From the IMG/VR virus record IMGVR_UViG_3300047564_004575, positions 8,661 to 72,660 of that record: a stretch of DNA of 64,000 bases; one strand, given 5' to 3'. Below are positions 3,455 to 20,751 of the stretch, piece after piece. The notes beneath the pieces are model-generated. The model was not told where the DNA came from. It saw nothing but the letters and a program-made list of their open reading frames with translations, and did not search any database. Both the position numbers and the translations under genes were made by a program. Source of the stretch: a virus. Within the stretch, counting starts at the first letter, position 1. Every line of letters starts with the position of its first letter.

Positions 3455-3910
3455 ATGTACAGCAATCACATTCAGGTTACGACTGGCTCTAAAAATTTAC
3501 TTCTCGCTGATTTCTGGGTACAGTCTGAACTGCCTATGTCCACTTCCGAACGTGCCCATGTAGTCAATCAGATGGGATGGGACAGCAACACGGTTCATCA
3601 CAAAACGTTAGAGGTTCTGCTGATTGACGGCGATCGCCCTGGGCACATGACTTTAATCGAAGCGACTATTCCCTTGCCTTCTTACAAACTGATTCAGTTG
3701 GATAACGGTGAAAAGTGTTGGCAAGATGAACGCTGGTATAACTGCGGTTTTGTTGATGCCCCATTGACCGAAGCGGAAGCCTATAACAAAGCCGTTGAGT
3801 GGGCTTTATTTGATGGGTTTGATGAATCTAGCGTGATTGGTCAAATCAAAGTCACGGTGCGCTATGTAGAGAAGTTTGCACTTGCTACCCATGCCGATGA
3901 CCCTTTCTAG
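3455..3910 (+). CDS. Hypothetical protein (early gene)
   Basis: 151-aa ORF directly downstream of the conserved promoter. Confidence 0.7.
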   Translation: MYSNHIQVTTGSKNLLLADFWVQSELPMSTSERAHVVNQMGWDSNTVHHKTLEVLLIDGDRPGHMTLIEATIPLPSYKLIQLDNGEKCWQDERWYNCGFVDAPLTEAEAYNKAVEWALFDGFDESSVIGQIKVTVRYVEKFALATHADDPF

Positions 3911-3989: not shown

Positions 3990-4196
3990 ATGAAATTTGT
4001 ATCTACTTCCGATGCTCTAAACTTATTACCCTTTGACATCACTCGCCAATACCTTTACCACTTAATTAAGTCAGGAGAATTAAAGAGTGGGCATCATTAC
4101 ATTGACATTAGATCACCGGATAGTAAACGTCCTACTTATCGATTAAGCGTAGAAAGATTGTTAGAGTATTTCTCTATTGACCCCGCTAAAAGATGA
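3990..4196 (+). CDS. Excisionase/RDF-like winged-HTH protein
   Basis: Small basic protein, STSDALNLL..ITRQYLYHLIKSG..HY..RPTYRLSV pattern. Confidence 0.65.
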   Translation: MKFVSTSDALNLLPFDITRQYLYHLIKSGELKSGHHYIDIRSPDSKRPTYRLSVERLLEYFSIDPAKR

Positions 4197-4459
4197 ACAA
4201 ACTTTACTCTGTTCTAGAGCATAAGACCAACGGTGAACGGTCTTTAATTTTATGGGACTGTGAGATTATTCGGGATAATACCGCTTTACATTGTGGACTG
4301 GTTTGGATTGATAAATCGTCTAACTTTGAACGGGTAACGCTAGTGCCTCGAATGGAAGAAAGTCCGATTATTGTGATTGAATATCCCAAATCATTGAGAG
4401 GATTAGCAACAGGTCAGACTATAGCTGATGTAATTTTTAAGATAGAATCGATAACTTAA
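4193..4459 (+). CDS. Hypothetical protein
   Basis: ATGA overlap with upstream ORF. Confidence 0.6.
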   Translation: MNKLYSVLEHKTNGERSLILWDCEIIRDNTALHCGLVWIDKSSNFERVTLVPRMEESPIIVIEYPKSLRGLATGQTIADVIFKIESIT

Positions 4460-6350: not shown

Positions 6351-6604
6351 TTAAGCCAATTTTAAGCCAATGCTATTTTAAGAATCACCAAAAGCCTTGC
6401 CGCTAGCGGGTTTTATCAATTAACCCATATTCCCAGACAAAACCTGCCTCATTGTAATCCATAAAATACTCAATCCTTTATACAGTAAGGGCTATGGAAG
6501 TTCTATACAAAATATAGGACTTCTCCCATAGCCCTCAAACGCCTATTTTTGGTAATGGTTTGATATGGTTAGAATTGATTTTTAAGCCAATTTTAAGCCA
6601 ATGC
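6351..6604. other. Candidate attP with integrase arm-type repeats
   Basis: Identical 23-mers TTAAGCCAATTTTAAGCCAATGC at 6351-6373 and 6582-6604; inverted repeat at ~6489-6534; adjacent to the integrase. Confidence 0.6.
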
Positions 6605-7704
6605 CTAGTGACGTTGATGGTAAGCTAAATCATGCTAACAGCCTATTAAAAGCGGGTAAGGTAGGCGTTCGGATAGTGGCAAGGGGCGATCGCCTAGCAT
6701 TGGTAGCAACGTTACCACCTAAGCCAGAATCGACTAAACCGTATCCCCATCAACAGCGTATCGCGTTAGGCTACCGACTTAATTACGCTGGTATTGATAA
6801 AGCCGTGAGGGATGCGAGAGTTTTATCGGCAAAATTAATCGAGGGTAATTTTAATTGGTCAGATTATATTGAAGGCAAAAAGACCATTGAGACGTTTGAT
6901 GATGCCATTGATAAATTCAAAGATGACTATATAACTAAGCGGTTATCATTGGGGCATGATGCGTTGAAAATCAATCAAACTTTAAGCGGTAACTTTCTAA
7001 AGTACCTGGACAGACTTGATAAAGATAAGCCATTCAATGTTGACAAATTAGCTTCTGAGCTGACTAAAATGCCCCATAATGCCACACGTAGAGCGATGGC
7101 GTTAGCATACTCAAACTTGGCTGATTGCGTTGGTGTAGAACATGATTTAAGGTCATTGAAGGGAGGTTATAGTTACAAGTCAGTTAACCCAAAAGACATC
7201 CCAGATGATGACACTATCGCCAAGGTTTACCAAGCAATAAACAGTAGAAAACTCAAGACTGTTTATGGCTTGATGGCAGTCTATGGGTTAAGAAACTATG
7301 AAGTATTCAGATTAGATTTGTCCGACTTTCCCGTTATATTTGTCAACAAAGGCAAGACTAAAGAAGAGAGATTGGTCTATCCTTTGTACCCTGAATGGGT
7401 TGATTGGTTGACCGATATGGTAATGCCTAATGTTAATTTAGAGCGTCCCAACGTCAGCTTAGGTAATGACGTAGCCCATTTATTTTATCGAGGCAATATT
7501 GCATTTAGTCCTTATTGTTTACGCCATGCTTGGGCTAGACGGTCTATGGAGTTTGGATGGGATTTAACGTTGGCAGCAAAGCAAATGGGACATACCGTAA
7601 AAGTTCATAGCGACGTTTACCATGCTTGGCTTAGTCAAGATGTTTACGACAAAGCCTACCAACAAATCCTAGATAATCCTAATCGACCTAAGCCACCTTT
7701 ATGA
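6601..7704 (+). CDS. int: Tyrosine integrase, cyanobacterial XisA/XisC-like
   Basis: N-terminal RLALVATLPPKP...HQQRIALG; catalytic GLRNYE, KGKT, LRHAWARR, MGH, Y. Confidence 0.92.
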   Translation: MPSDVDGKLNHANSLLKAGKVGVRIVARGDRLALVATLPPKPESTKPYPHQQRIALGYRLNYAGIDKAVRDARVLSAKLIEGNFNWSDYIEGKKTIETFDDAIDKFKDDYITKRLSLGHDALKINQTLSGNFLKYLDRLDKDKPFNVDKLASELTKMPHNATRRAMALAYSNLADCVGVEHDLRSLKGGYSYKSVNPKDIPDDDTIAKVYQAINSRKLKTVYGLMAVYGLRNYEVFRLDLSDFPVIFVNKGKTKEERLVYPLYPEWVDWLTDMVMPNVNLERPNVSLGNDVAHLFYRGNIAFSPYCLRHAWARRSMEFGWDLTLAAKQMGHTVKVHSDVYHAWLSQDVYDKAYQQILDNPNRPKPPL

Positions 7705-7712
7705 TAGGAATA

Positions 7713-7852
7713 TCAGCGTTAGTTTAATTGGTCAAAATGTAGCTATGGTATGCTACTAATCAGTTAAATAGTTTTTGTAAGCTAGCTACAAATAGATTTA
7801 ATTGGTTAATCTCAACCCGGGATGGAGTATAGGTTCGAATCCTATACGCTGA
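7713..7852 (+). ncRNA. Enlarged tRNA-like RNA (non-canonical)
   Basis: Acceptor TCAGCGT/ACGCTGA, D arm GTTT-AATTGGTCA-AAAT, T arm ATAGG-TTCGAAT-CCTAT; about 90-nt multi-hairpin insert replaces a normal anticodon arm. Confidence 0.65.
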
Positions 7853-7930
7853 TAAAGGGATGCAAACGCCTTGCCTAAAAAGCTAAACGGATAGACTACG
7901 GTTGAAATAACCGGGCTGGATTGGTAACCA

Positions 7931-7994: not shown

Positions 7995-8810
7995 TTATTC
8001 ACCTAATAAGCGTTGCCGGTCTTTCCCGTAGACAATGTTAATTGCTTCATCTAATTTATCGGGGGCGATATATTCTGAGACAGTAGCGCGACGTACTGGA
8101 ATCAATAAATCATCTCGCCCTTCCTTGCGTAATGTATCAGAGAATTGCTTGAGAGATTTTAACTTTTGCCCCGTACGCTCAAATACTGCCCGTTTTAATT
8201 GGTCAGCACTCAGAAACTTAGTAGACTTGCCAGTGTCAACCTCAATAACTTCAGTGACTACGGTTTCTTTTTCAACGATGATATCCTGACAACCTCGCAG
8301 GGCTAAGACAACGCGATCGCCGTGTAATTGAAGCATCGTATTGTCTAATTGCTTGCCTAAGTTCTTTTCCCGTTCTAGCTCTAAGCGTAGACGTAACAGT
8401 TCATTTTCTTGGCTTAGGGCAGGAATGACCGTCTCAGCTTCACGTGTCTTAACAGCAAAGTAATGTTTAGCCATCTTGACCGCATCATTGCCACGACTAT
8501 CGCAGCAAAGTGCAATGTGATAACAGGCTAGTCGGGATAAATCGTAATCCAACATATCAACCCCGCCACCTTGAGGGCGTTTAACCATCTTACCCGACGG
8601 GGTAATGTGGCTAGATACGCAATCCACAATGGTTTCAAGGTTTTCTTGGGCAATCTCGATTACACATTTAAACTTCTGCCATTTGGCATAATTCAGGACG
8701 AATTGCAAGTCACGGGCAGACCAAAACTCGTTACCCTGTGCATCCAACTGGCGGATGACATCGAAGGGACTGGCTTGGTATTGCGTTTCTACCGTTGCTA
8801 AATTAGTCAT
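7995..8810 (-). CDS. BRO/DinD-like antirepressor protein
   Basis: SPFDVIRQ..GNEFWSARDLQ..L.Y.KWQKF, DY.LSRLACY.IA, AKHYFAVKTREAE. Confidence 0.75.
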   Translation of the reverse strand: MTNLATVETQYQASPFDVIRQLDAQGNEFWSARDLQFVLNYAKWQKFKCVIEIAQENLETIVDCVSSHITPSGKMVKRPQGGGVDMLDYDLSRLACYHIALCCDSRGNDAVKMAKHYFAVKTREAETVIPALSQENELLRLRLELEREKNLGKQLDNTMLQLHGDRVVLALRGCQDIIVEKETVVTEVIEVDTGKSTKFLSADQLKRAVFERTGQKLKSLKQFSDTLRKEGRDDLLIPVRRATVSEYIAPDKLDEAINIVYGKDRQRLLGE

Positions 8811-18221: not shown

Positions 18222-18598
18222 AACGCATTAAACACCATCAACAGTTAAGGGAACGGATTGTAAAGGGCATGGACTCTGTCAGTGATGCCTATCAATCCGC
18301 CATGCTACAAACTATCTCCGAACCCTATCAATGGCCCGATGGGTTTGGCGTTACTCACCGTCGCAATGGGGAAGTAGTCGTCGGCTCTAACCGTAATATC
18401 GTGGACTTGGGTAATCTTAAAAACTCCCAAACTATGTTTCGCCAGGGATTAAAAACTACCTATGAATGGTCTGGCATGGGTGAAACACCGCCAGTTATTG
18501 TCCACGAGGGAGCTACACTAGCTAACGGAACTCAAATACCACCCCGACGCTGGACTGAGGTGGCAGTTGATAAAGTAGATTGGCAGGGATTGTTTTAG
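18218..18598 (+). CDS. Putative neck/tail completion protein (HK97 gp10-like)
   Basis: RNIVDLGNLKNSQ, VHEG, PPRRW. Confidence 0.6.
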   Translation: MKRIKHHQQLRERIVKGMDSVSDAYQSAMLQTISEPYQWPDGFGVTHRRNGEVVVGSNRNIVDLGNLKNSQTMFRQGLKTTYEWSGMGETPPVIVHEGATLANGTQIPPRRWTEVAVDKVDWQGLF

Positions 18599-19056
18599 CC
18601 TTGAATTTTAACGATCGCCGATTTACCAAAGTTTGGTTTGATAATTTCTCGTTTTTCTCCAGCAAGTTGTTTCCGAACCGTAGAGACTGCAGCGACTTCC
18701 GCCCCTACTATATTCAGTTCTGAAATAAATCGCTTTTGACCATCTTGTGACAAATTAGAACAGTCAATAGATGTCTGTAATCGTCGTAATTGCTTACGTT
18801 TTTTACGGTTAGCCGCTAGGTTTTGTTTCCGAACGTAAAATACAGCTTCCTCATCGGTCAAGATAGAAATACCGCCACTATTGGTCTTACAAACTACTTC
18901 TAATCTTGATTCGATTTGACTAACCAATTGCATCACAGCAAACGAATATTCCTGAGAGTCTACTTTATGCCCTGTAATCTTTTCGAGGTAGTCAGGGTTT
19001 ATATAATCACCTTTTTGTAAGGCATCAAAATCAAAGGGAAACTTTTCAACGTTCAT
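18595..19056 (-). CDS. Hypothetical protein, candidate accessory factor of the RAMP/pentamer-array locus
   Basis: Co-oriented immediately after the array; TGGAG RBS; basic helical C-terminal half. Confidence 0.7.
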   Translation of the reverse strand: MNVEKFPFDFDALQKGDYINPDYLEKITGHKVDSQEYSFAVMQLVSQIESRLEVVCKTNSGGISILTDEEAVFYVRKQNLAANRKKRKQLRRLQTSIDCSNLSQDGQKRFISELNIVGAEVAAVSTVRKQLAGEKREIIKPNFGKSAIVKIQG

Positions 19057-19185
19057 TACGAAACTCCAAAATAAATAAAAAGGGAGAGGGGCAATTAAGC
19101 CCCCATTAGACTAGACTTGGCGCGACCCAACGTGACTCGACGCGACAGGACTTGACTCGACGGAACTGAACTTGACATGGGTTTT

Positions 19186-19228
19186 GCCGTCTTCAAGAAT
19201 TGCACTTGATTAAACCACTAGGGACAGC
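19186..19228 (-). ncRNA. Mini tRNA-like element 1 (acceptor stem plus T arm, no anticodon arm)
   Basis: GCTGTCC-CTAGTGGTTTAA-TCAAG TGCAATT CTTGA-AGACGGC. Confidence 0.75.
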
Positions 19229-19335
19229 ATGACTAGGGAGTTACCCCTAGTAATTAGACTAGACTTGACAAAACTTGACTTGACATGACATGACCGAACT
19301 CGACATGACCCAACTTGACCAAACATGATTGTTTT

Positions 19336-19377
19336 GCCCTCCGATGGAATTGCACCACCGTTAACACTAGAGAAAGC
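19336..19377 (-). ncRNA. Mini tRNA-like element 2
   Basis: GCTTTCT-CTAGTGTTAAC-GGTGG TGCAATT CCATC-GGAGGGC. Confidence 0.75.
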
Positions 19378-19553
19378 ATGGGAGGGGCATAAGCCCCAAG
19401 ACCTAACTAAGCTTGACTAAGCGTGACCAGTCTAAACATGGCGAACCCCGTCGAGACTCGTGACGCTATCTTAATTAGGAGAAAAACATAGACTAGACCC
19501 GACTAAACGTGGCTTGACTTGGCTGGACTGAACAAAAACGCGACTAGAAAGTT

Positions 19554-19627
19554 TGGAAGCGATACTGGGAATCGAACCCAGGATAGAGATTTTGCAGATC
19601 CCTGCCTTACCACTTGGCTATATCGCT
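19554..19627 (-). tRNA. trnC: tRNA-Cys(GCA) embedded in the array
   Basis: AGCGATA/TATCGCT acceptor, D loop with GG, anticodon loop CT-GCA-AA, CTGGG-TTCGATT-CCCAG, U discriminator, encoded CCA. Confidence 0.95.
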
Positions 19628-19768
19628 TTGGAGACTAGGGAATTACCCCTAGTAATTAGACTAGACATGACCAGACGCGACTTGACGAGACGCAACCAAA
19701 CAAAACGCAACCGAACATAACCGAACGCGACAAGACGCGACTAAACCTAACACAACTCGATTGTTTTT

Positions 19769-19811
19769 GCCCCTTGCCAGAATTGCACTGGCTTAAACCA
19801 CTAGGAGAGGC
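19769..19811 (-). ncRNA. Mini tRNA-like element 3
   Basis: GCCTCTC-CTAGTGGTTTAA-GCCAG TGCAATT CTGGC-AAGGGGC. Confidence 0.75.
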
Positions 19812-19916
19812 GTGACTAGGGGAATTAACCCCTAGTAATTAGACTTGACGCGACGCGACCTGGCAAAACATAACCCGACACGGCGGAACCAAACAAAACT
19901 CAGCAAGAAAATCTGT

Positions 19917-20537
19917 TTAGAGTTCGACTTTAAAGCGACCAAACTCAGGACGGCGATCGCATAGTCCGATGATTTTGCCGCTTAGATGCAAGATATCAGC
20001 AATGTCAGCTTGGTTTACAACATCTGGCATATAGTCAACAACGATTTCCGCTTCCCATGACCGGAAAATAGGACGGGTACGCATAATAGCATTCTTCATC
20101 ACACGCTCAGCCCGAACGTCAACATAGTTGGCATCCGCCCATAACTCGTTAGTTCCTTTGTTAGTCCCAATGTCAAGACGGGCATCTTCACTAATCACAA
20201 TCCCAGCTTTAAACGTCGTCCCAAGCTTCTTCTTTTTAGCACCTGACAAAAGCATCCCTTTAATAACCGTAGCAGGTAAGCATGGCTTGCTATTGTCGGT
20301 AAAAGCAATGTCTGCCCCGTCAACGTCTAGATTGTGTTGACCTTCCAGATAAAGACCGGCATACCATTCTAATTTGCTGATAACGTCGAGGTCATCTTCA
20401 ACCTTTTTGCGCTTGCCGGTGTATTGCTTAATCAGTTGCGTGATGCCATTGCGAGGATTGACCAGAATATTGGCATTGTGCATTAACAGGGGAGTGTGTC
20501 CTATTAACTTTGCTTGCAGTGTTTTAAAACCGTCCAT
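19917..20537 (-). CDS. Stand-alone Cas7/RAMP-like RNA-binding protein (Vipr-like)
   Basis: L.G.TPLLMH first strand, PCLPATVIKGML (compare RAMP IPGSSLKG), RTRPIF..W, C-terminal G-loop GKIIGLCDRRPEFGRFKV. Confidence 0.75.
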   Translation of the reverse strand: MDGFKTLQAKLIGHTPLLMHNANILVNPRNGITQLIKQYTGKRKKVEDDLDVISKLEWYAGLYLEGQHNLDVDGADIAFTDNSKPCLPATVIKGMLLSGAKKKKLGTTFKAGIVISEDARLDIGTNKGTNELWADANYVDVRAERVMKNAIMRTRPIFRSWEAEIVVDYMPDVVNQADIADILHLSGKIIGLCDRRPEFGRFKVEL

Positions 20538-20566
20538 ACTTGCCTCGATGAATTTCTATATAAATC

Positions 20567-20595
20567 ATATTACCTGGCACACTGTTATTTGTCAA
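20567..20595 (-). promoter_or_regulatory. Sigma70-type promoter of the RAMP gene and array
   Basis: TTGACA-N17-TAATAT; GAGG RBS near 20543-20546. Confidence 0.75.
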
Positions 20596-20681
20596 CCAAA
20601 AAAGAATATGTAATGGACTTAATTTGTTTTGCCATCAAATATATGTGACCAAGTGGCGATCGCCACCCACCCCCATATAAA

Positions 20682-20751
20682 CCCAAAACCCATACACCGT
20701 AAGGCTTTCAAAAAGTGTTGCATATACTTTAGAAACTCCAGGGGACTGCAA
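20682..20751 (+). repeat. Dispersed 70-bp repeat, copy C
   Basis: AAACCCATACACCGTAAGGCTTTCAAAAAGTGTTGCATATACTTTAGAAACTCCAGGGGACTGCAA. Confidence 0.9.

Follow-up and report, generated by a model that had tools for sequence, protein, structure and literature searches.

The stretch analysed here, hereafter the window, is a 64,000-nucleotide (nt) part (positions 8,661 to 72,660) of a 72,660-base virus record, IMG/VR record IMGVR_UViG_3300047564_004575. Between two minus-strand open reading frames (ORFs) in it lies an intergenic region, 19057-19916, that holds an array of five-nucleotide repeats on the minus strand. The locus belongs to VIPR (Viral Interference Programmable Repeat), a system for RNA-guided silencing of genes described in 2026 (10.64898/2026.04.26.720920), and its guide tracts (vrRNAs) are spaced by a tRNA-Cys and by three short tRNA-shaped minihelices, which are our main subject. 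The vipr gene, the vrRNAs and a probable vipr-accessory (vap) gene are all on the minus strand, where the order is vipr, A, mini3, B, tRNA-Cys, C1, C2, mini2, D, mini1, E, terminator, vap. The features, in that order, are as follows.

20567..20595, minus strand: sigma-70-like promoter site TTGACA-17-TAATAT (consensus scan, 10/12 matches)
19917..20537, minus strand: vipr gene, 206 amino acids (aa), a minimal RAMP protein (PDB 36pp profile match)
19840..19904, minus strand: vrRNA A, 13 GYY/NN pentamers, with UUUCUU before the tract (in-phase pentamers, period-5 score)
19816..19835, minus strand: tail hairpin of vrRNA A, CUAGGGG-UUAAUU-CCCCUAG (read from sequence)
19769..19811, minus strand: mini-tRNA 3, acceptor stem, linker and T-arm (covariance model R1, 72.4 bits)
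19657..19756, minus strand: vrRNA B, 20 pentamers (in-phase pentamers)
19635..19652, minus strand: tail hairpin of vrRNA B (read from sequence)
19554..19627, minus strand: tRNA-Cys(GCA) with encoded CCA, in a separator slot (ARAGORN; Rfam RF00005, 65 bits)
19489..19533, minus strand: vrRNA C1, 9 in-phase pentamers and two out-of-phase ones upstream, without a tail hairpin
19384..19450, minus strand: degenerate tract C2, about 8 G-phased pentamers (read from sequence)
19384-19397, minus strand: hairpin of C2, GGGGC-UUAU-GCCCC (read from sequence)
19336..19377, minus strand: mini-tRNA 2 (R1, 69.7 bits)
19255..19324, minus strand: vrRNA D, 14 pentamers (in-phase pentamers)
19233..19250, minus strand: tail hairpin of vrRNA D (read from sequence)
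19186..19228, minus strand: mini-tRNA 1 (R1, 72.2 bits)
19107..19176, minus strand: vrRNA E, 14 pentamers (in-phase pentamers)
19087..19104, minus strand: intrinsic-terminator-like hairpin and T-run at the end of the array (terminator scan)
18595..19056, minus strand: 153-aa ORF, probable vap gene (synteny with locus L118)

The identity of the system comes from the protein encoded upstream of the array. A profile built from 109 homologues of the 206-aa protein matches PDB 36pp_D, the SUSP1 Vipr protein, with an E-value of 4.1e-61, and the single sequence reaches 5.3e-16 against 36pp; it also matches phrog_4652. The AlphaFold2 model has a pLDDT (predicted local distance difference test) score of 96.5, and its best folds in a copy of the PDB predating 36pp are the Csm3/Cas7 RAMPs. 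In a pairwise alignment the SUSP1 residues H17, R138, D177 and R179 correspond to H20, R155, D194 and R196 of the window protein, all of them conserved, while SUSP1 W178 aligns to Arg195. In SUSP1, R138 holds G2 of the repeat and W178 stacks on it, and the P. fulva equivalent of W178 is Y176 (10.64898/2026.04.26.720927). The window Vipr keeps the residues for G1 (H20, D194), the arginine R155 and the Y3 arginine (R196). We also made a rough census of residue against repeat motif, in which the motif was found in 59 of 136 loci, 29 of these had too few repeats and 30 were scored. An aromatic residue at the W178 site goes with GGY arrays in 26 of the 27 scorable loci that have one, and an arginine at that site occurs only in the window and its relative.

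This relative, locus L118 from IMG/VR, has a vipr gene of 78% identity, followed by an array and then by a homologue of the 153-aa ORF. The latter is 53% identical to the window ORF, which also resembles the ORF after vipr and array in locus L172 (30% identity, E-value 3e-9). No named family in Pfam, PHROG, PADLOC or the PDB matches the 153-aa ORF; by its position and this synteny it is probably the vap gene. The L118 array has four tracts, one minihelix (3684-3727) and no tRNA. Its minihelix follows the design seen in the window, with different stems and the loop UGUAAUU, and sits between two consecutive tracts without a terminator; another junction of the same array carries a terminator-like hairpin. 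The last L118 tract is closed by the same GGGCTTATGCCC hairpin that closes C2 in the window. Closer Vipr homologues (P0002, P0003, P0005 and P0006) are 67-88% identical to the window protein. A single-protein scan of viral contigs for vipr relatives found none, and among genome contigs no Vipr relative exceeded 40% identity.

Within the 64 kb of the window, a phase score of 8-10 of 10 is reached only in this array. The tracts keep a strict period of five, G-T-Y-N-N on the minus strand, and comprise five clean tracts of 13, 20, 9, 14 and 14 pentamers and one degenerate tract. The 70 in-phase pentamers have G at position 1 without exception (70/70), U (64/70) or C (6/70) and never G (0/70) at position 2, and C (45) or U (25) at position 3, with positions 4 and 5 variable; it is possible to read the register alternatively as N-G-U-y-N. 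Published vrRNAs have 9-16 pentamers, each with a fixed GGY and a variable NN, and end in a conserved, structured 3' tail of about 40 nt; Vipr protomers polymerise on them, and the NN dinucleotides pair with double-stranded DNA, one target base being skipped per repeat (10.64898/2026.04.26.720920). For SUSP1 the same report shows both vrRNA expression and Vipr binding, and it lists the non-canonical motifs NNNGG, YNNNG and NNNNG. A further non-canonical motif, GAC/NN (10.64898/2026.10.21.760802), may be the GUY/NN of the window read from the other strand. By these features of sequence we identify the tracts as VIPR vrRNAs with a non-canonical GUY/NN pentamer. We had considered a ring-protein sponge, primase sites and iterons as explanations of the tracts, and the question was settled by the neighbour: because the adjacent gene is a Vipr homologue, the tracts are guides rather than primase sites or iterons. 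The first-pass annotation had called them guides without naming the system, and VIPR is the system to which they belong. Its remark that no Cas6 was in view is half right, in that the adjacent gene itself encodes a RAMP protein, the Cas5/6/7 relative Vipr; the VIPR texts, in the parts consulted, report no nuclease activity for it.

Every tract except C1 (A, B, C2, D and E) has a hairpin after it. For A, B and D this is a conserved GTCTA(A/G)... AATTACTAGGGG hairpin, for C2 the GGGGC hairpin and for E the terminator-like hairpin. The AGTCTAATTACTAGGGG motif of the tail hairpins has three exact copies in the window, all within the array, and the conserved 17-mer is found nowhere else in the window. 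We rejected AGTCTAATTACTAGGGG as a promoter for a phage RNA polymerase, since the motif is restricted to the array and no single-subunit RNA polymerase was seen. CRISPR-type direct repeats of about 25-40 nt in alternation with unique spacers are absent, and the repeat finders return only periodicities of 5, 10, 15 and 20 nt together with duplicated cassettes. The latter combine a tail hairpin with a minihelix and the beginning of the guide that follows; their copies are 77% identical (19177-19238 to 19760-19821, and 19231-19324 to 19633-19726), which suggests that the array grows as cassettes are duplicated. The sequence TTTCTTGCTGAG precedes the first tract of the window (19897-19910, minus strand) and three of the four L118 tracts (3463-3476, 3581-3594 and 3863-3885), and may be a 5' handle or a region of transcription start; tracts that come after a minihelix start with AAAAC(A)A instead. 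A search for guide targets over 2.05 Mb, in which host and competitor genomes were not covered, gave best scores no better than those of shuffled guides at a skip of 0-2, and at a skip of 3 the array matched itself.

The tRNA-Cys has a full cloverleaf, a GCA anticodon, a U73 discriminator and an encoded 3' CCA, and its Rfam match covers model positions 1-71. ARAGORN calls no other tRNA in the array. The minihelices, of 42-43 nt on the minus strand, begin with G1 of an acceptor-like stem of 6-7 bp, which in all of them runs directly into a T-stem of 5 bp. Both D-arm and anticodon arm are missing, and ARAGORN does not call them. Their linker is CUAGUG(G)UU(U)AA(C), which includes AGUGG and keeps the GG, and the T-stems (UCAAG/CUUGA, GGUGG/CCAUC and GCCAG/CUGGC) close the loop UGCAAUU. 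After each stem stands an unpaired A and then a run of A. In a canonical tRNA an acceptor stem of 7 bp adjoins a T-stem of 5 bp with a T-loop of 7 nt, and the T-arm has the consensus G53-C61, U54, C56, R57 and A58. Numbered in this way, the minihelices of the window and L118 keep the G-C closing pair (G53-C61) in 4/4 copies, together with U54, C/U56, A57 and A58. Reading the seven-nucleotide loop as a Cys anticodon loop was rejected, as position 33 would then be a G and the loop of L118 is UGUAAUU.

Several results argue that these are structures rather than chance pairings. The window contains the pattern CTAGTG-N9-14-TGCAATT 3 times, whereas the average over 100 shuffles is 0.01. A stricter pattern has 36 matches outside the clade, of which 2 are viral, 9 come from genomes and 25 from metagenomes; in none of them are both stems paired, and these are chance matches. 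The stems work only on the minus strand, because of their G.U pairs, and the fold energies are -10.1, -10.3 and -14.5 kcal/mol on that strand against -6.1, -2.9 and -10.2 kcal/mol on the plus strand. When the three window minihelices are aligned with the L118 copy (3684-3727), 46 of the 48 pair cells hold standard pairs and 7 of the 12 pairs have changed on both sides; 0 of 500 shuffles reached the observed paired share or covariation score, and slid controls were 35-54% paired. This pattern indicates that the minihelices are real, conserved and under structural selection. Thus the three elements that the first-pass annotation had placed at 19186-19228, 19336-19377 and 19769-19811 are borne out with all their parts, as is its tRNA-Cys at 19554-19627, provided that both are read on the minus strand, and the compensatory variation of the stems that it had noticed extends to the added L118 copy.

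The position of the elements in the array is regular. Every tRNA or mini-tRNA comes after a guide tract and its hairpin and before the next tract, and the tRNA-Cys occupies a slot equivalent to that of the minihelices, as had been said of it. A minihelix starts 3 nt past the tail hairpin, and the tRNA-Cys 7 nt past it; after a minihelix come AAAAC(A)... and then the next tract. The claim that the elements separate the guides stands for 4 of the 5 guide-to-guide junctions and fails at C1|C2, and no element separates vipr from A. Apart from its missing hairpin, the C1/C2 junction is similar to a junction of L118 made up of a terminator and a restart.

Consensus scans of 18900-20700 found two promoter-like sites on the minus strand, of which the stronger lies 30 nt ahead of vipr and the weaker within that gene (20395-20366, 9/12), and none within the array. 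The only terminator-like site is the one after guide E. One promoter before vipr and one terminator after E would mean that the guides are made as one long RNA, which fits the polycistron that the first reading of the locus had proposed, and guides made on a single transcript need to be cut apart. Here the anatomy of the minihelices matters. RNase P grips its substrate at the tRNA elbow and gauges the stack of T-stem-loop and acceptor stem, and for RNase Z a 3' CCA acts as an anti-determinant (both as given in PMC4919913). Because CCA blocks RNase Z, the minihelices, which have a discriminator A and no CCA, look like substrates of both RNase P and RNase Z.

A route from transcript to guides can be proposed on this basis. 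Transcription would begin before vipr and stop at the terminator after the last guide. The minihelices would retain only what the enzymes that process tRNA ends read, namely the acceptor stem, the T-stem, the T-loop-like loop, the GG remnant of the D-loop and the discriminator A. Host RNase P would cut on the 5' side of each element, so that the preceding guide comes free together with its hairpin and an overhang of 3 nt, and RNase Z would cut on the 3' side and make the 5' end of the next guide. The tRNA-Cys would take a different route to its 3' end, since its CCA blocks RNase Z. Cuts at the element boundaries would leave the hairpin of each guide intact. From anatomy and analogy, we regard RNase P/Z punctuation of the guide array as the best explanation of the tRNA-shaped elements, and as probably, though by no means assuredly, the right one. 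The most likely origin of the minihelices is in tRNA genes that lost the anticodon arm and the D-stem.

We looked for similar elements in 134 further Vipr loci, 79 on viral contigs (L157-L235) and 55 on genome contigs. Period-5 tracts on the vipr strand are present in 122 of 135 loci scanned (75/80 viral, 47/55 genomic). The covariance-model check that the first-pass annotation had suggested worked on the window minihelices (R1 scores of 69.7-72.4 bits) and found no further copies in the 134 other loci, where the best score was 15 bits. The elements of other loci were found only by a structural descriptor, a 5-bp stem closing a GT[TG][CT]RANNC loop. Within 200 nt of a tract the descriptor matches 15 times on the vipr strand and 2 times on the opposite one, and 13 of these 15 also have an acceptor-like pairing of 6 bp; far from tracts there are 19 matches on the vipr strand, real tRNAs included, against 3 opposite. 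For the canonical GTTCRANNC loop the figures are 20 and 1. In this way 10 of 136 loci have a tRNA-like element near a tract (the window, L118, L157, L158, L171, L236, L256, L259, L268 and L274). As some of these are related (L157/L158/L236, and three from Bacteroidales), they amount to perhaps five to seven lineages.

The arrangement in some of these loci is close to that of the window. In L274, from Streptomyces, two minihelices of 40-42 nt (2721-2760 and 2846-2887, with loops UUCGAAU and UUCGACU) alternate with three tracts upstream of vipr. In L171, a high-GC viral contig, one of two minihelices (~4132-4183 and ~4246-4294) is found after the vap stop codon and ahead of the first tract, and the other separates two tracts. 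In L236, L157, L158 and the Bacteroidales loci L256, L259 and L268 the element stands at the end of the array, before the next ORF. RNA folding recovers acceptor and T-arm in most loci, and no Rfam family matches the element loci at E-values up to 0.1. The element of L157 and L158 is about 90 nt long with a central hairpin (1455-1544 in L157), and that of the related L236 has 52 nt, which fits stepwise trimming of a tRNA-like ancestor and the suggestion, made when the window was first read, that mini-tRNAs are trimmed descendants of tRNA genes. ARAGORN finds no tRNA inside the arrays of the other loci surveyed; L166, L176/L180/L183 and L280 have tRNAs 0.6-2 kb away. L280 was left uncounted, its three tRNAs being a separate cluster with ORFs between cluster and vipr.

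Two side observations belong to these loci. In L236, a Pirellula metagenome-assembled genome (MAG), the 52-nt element (1049-1099) is followed by a gene of the CsrA family (1146-1331, Pfam E-value 5e-25). L280, a Prevotella MAG, has AGT/NN-type pentamers after vipr (3641-3700), in a locus that is partly N-masked and has its tRNA cluster 0.6-1.6 kb upstream.

A wider reading of this survey is that minihelices are a general maturation module of VIPR arrays, repeatedly acquired or ancient, that occurs in cyanophages, Actinomycetota, Planctomycetota and Bacteroidota and hands processing to the RNase P and RNase Z of the host. We put this forward tentatively, as a possibility that falls a little short of probable.

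A number of points weigh against RNase P/Z punctuation, in the window or more widely. The stretch was matched by DNA contigs only, and none of the listed runs that contain it is an RNA run. The promoter and terminator calls are consensus matches only, and there could thus be internal promoters. Two junctions, vipr|A and C1|C2, are without a tRNA-like element, so tRNA-type processing is not the sole maker of guide ends, and with 126 of the 136 VIPR loci lacking such an element vrRNA maturation in general needs none. The structures themselves depart from tRNA in having G rather than U at loop position 55 and a C-A mismatch as the seventh acceptor pair in 2 of 4 copies, and they match no Rfam family, tRNA included, at E-values up to 10. 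Their single-sequence fold z-scores are only -1.0 to -2.1 (-1.0 to -1.2 for the minus-strand folds in the window), and the covariation is drawn from no more than 4 sequences, three of them paralogues, in 2 phages.

If the elements are not cut out, they might stay on the mature guide as part of its structured 3' tail, where they could cap it against exonuclease attack or offer Vipr or Vap a place to dock. Ends of tRNA-like shape at the 3' side are known stabilisers, published vrRNAs have a conserved structured tail of about 40 nt, and loci of the Bacteroidales and Pirellula type have an element only after the last tract. However, guide E and all but one of the L118 guides have no minihelix, each tract is already closed by a separate conserved hairpin, a complete tRNA-Cys with its own CCA occupies the same slot, and in L171 a minihelix lies 5' of a guide, between the vap stop codon and the first tract. 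We therefore think it unlikely that the minihelices are kept on the guides. The presence of a real tRNA in the array raises another thought, that guide cassettes invaded a phage tRNA cluster and that the minihelices are its decaying, functionless remnants; phage tRNA clusters are common, and the minihelices do fail tRNA models. Decay is hard to square with compensatory changes that hold both stems, with a loop and linker that are invariant across copies, with the retention of the element in a relative despite identities of only 53-78% between the flanking proteins, or with analogous elements in unrelated VIPR loci that show a strong bias of strand and proximity, and we consider it very improbable.

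We give an equally small chance to a different tRNA-related role, in which the elements would be decoys (for tRNA-binding factors of the host or for defence nucleases), substrates for CCA addition or recombination sites and would be linked to VIPR by co-expression only. Viral tRNA mimicry has many uses, and the discriminator A and G1 are conserved. Yet there is no anticodon arm to serve as a target for anticodon nucleases, no integrase is nearby (the only one is at 6601-7704), and the elements without exception abut a guide boundary and lie on the same strand as the guides. Finally, nothing would need to be separated if the pentamer tracts acted as DNA, as iterons or as arrays of primase sites or promoters. 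GTC and GTT are the recognition triplets of the T7 and T4 primases, and the spacing is strictly 5 bp. Against this stand the adjoining Vipr homologue, the same association of tract and gene in 122 of 135 other loci, the conserved 17-mer that is confined to the array within the window, and SUSP1 vrRNAs that are expressed and Vipr-bound (10.64898/2026.04.26.720920), and we give the idea almost no credence.

Should RNase P/Z punctuation be correct, it would have some practical and conceptual use. Apart from the ribozyme-spaced types, the VIPR texts are, in the parts consulted, silent on how arrays become single guides; for some members of the family, guides that are spaced by tRNAs in nature would supply a definite answer that can be tested. 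Among prokaryotes this would be the first case in nature of what the engineered tRNA-guide RNA (tRNA-gRNA) design does, and in VIPR or CRISPR tools the spacers of 40-43 nt could serve as small parts for multiplexing. The minihelices would show what remains of tRNA genes when only end processing is selected, namely the acceptor stem, the T-arm and the GG linker. If the module is general, guide processing would rely on the essential RNase P and RNase Z of the host, which are beyond a competitor's switching-off, and the elements of 40-43 nt would be the smallest natural substrates of bacterial RNase P and RNase Z. The findings are thus relevant to VIPR research, tRNA processing and guide multiplexing.

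The rest of the window gives the context. The phage looks like a siphovirus, with structural genes for the large terminase, portal, major head protein, protease and a tape-measure protein of 3,736 aa; there are further genes for an integrase, a sigma factor, a clamp and a primase/helicase. The presence of HIP1-like sites (GCGATCGC) hints at a possible cyanobacterial host. The sequencing runs that contain this DNA are freshwater metagenomes. A contig from a second sample and study spans 18814-20388, and so the whole array, with zero differences, which leaves no natural variants with which the structure could be tested. Two further runs have short contigs that match only the tRNA-Cys and pieces of tracts. 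Beside the integrase gene (6601-7704), an Rfam tRNA match on the plus strand (7713-7853) scores 40 bits over 141 nt; its anticodon loop is enlarged by an insertion of 36 nt and its variable region by about 37 nt, ARAGORN does not call it, and it could be an interrupted tRNA or the remnant of an attachment site.

VIPR itself is already known, and the comparison with it shows what the window adds. The described architectures are type II, staggered arrays, hammerhead-interspersed arrays and single guides (10.64898/2026.04.26.720920). The word tRNA is absent from the main texts of that report (Methods and supplementary figure legends included), of 10.64898/2026.04.26.720927 and of 759431, where supplementary data may differ, and a term search of 10.64898/2026.10.21.760802, as far as its text was available, has neither "tRNA-like" nor "mini-tRNA". 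As far as the texts of these four works go, which are the only ones listed on vrRNAs, tRNA-like spacers in VIPR arrays are undescribed. Like type II, as in SUSP1 and the P. fulva prophage, the window has a Vipr RAMP gene, probably a small accessory gene, guides arrayed in the neighbouring intergenic DNA, pentamers with a fixed trinucleotide and a variable NN, and carriage by a phage; the hairpins after most tracts may answer to the structured 3' tail of type II. It differs from type II in its trinucleotide (G-U-Y in place of G-G-Y) and in having Arg195 where SUSP1 has W178, as well as in having simple hairpins as putative tails and in guides that are spaced by a tRNA and minihelices.

Hammerhead-interspersed arrays belong to VIPR types I and V (legend of fig. 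S19, 10.64898/2026.04.26.720920). They share with our proposal for the window a cutting device between adjacent guides of one transcript; theirs is a self-cleaving ribozyme, whereas that of the window would be a passive tRNA-shaped signal for host RNase P and RNase Z. In 19000-19960 no ribozyme of Rfam, the hammerhead included, is found at E-values up to 10. In engineered tRNA-gRNA arrays, and in the tRNA punctuation of mitochondria, tRNAs are excised by RNase P and RNase Z and the flanking RNAs are freed. The window would be a natural phage case of this, with guides that are not CRISPR guides and with most separators only 42-43 nt long.

Other tRNA-like elements are known to be parted from a partner RNA by tRNA-processing enzymes, as in MALAT1/mascRNA. 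In the tRNA-miRNA-encoded RNAs (TMERs) of murine gammaherpesvirus 68, a small regulatory RNA is attached to a tRNA-like element and separated from it in the same way (PMC4045068). These cases differ from the window in being eukaryotic (RNA polymerase III or nuclear RNase P), in keeping the cloverleaf and in having as partner a precursor microRNA or a long non-coding RNA in place of a guide that targets DNA. Minihelices of acceptor and T-arm are also laboratory substrates of RNase P, RNase Z and the CCA-adding enzyme. With these the window elements share a coaxial stack of acceptor and T-stem of 12 bp and a T-loop, and they are unlike them in being natural and in having a GG-bearing linker that could form an elbow.

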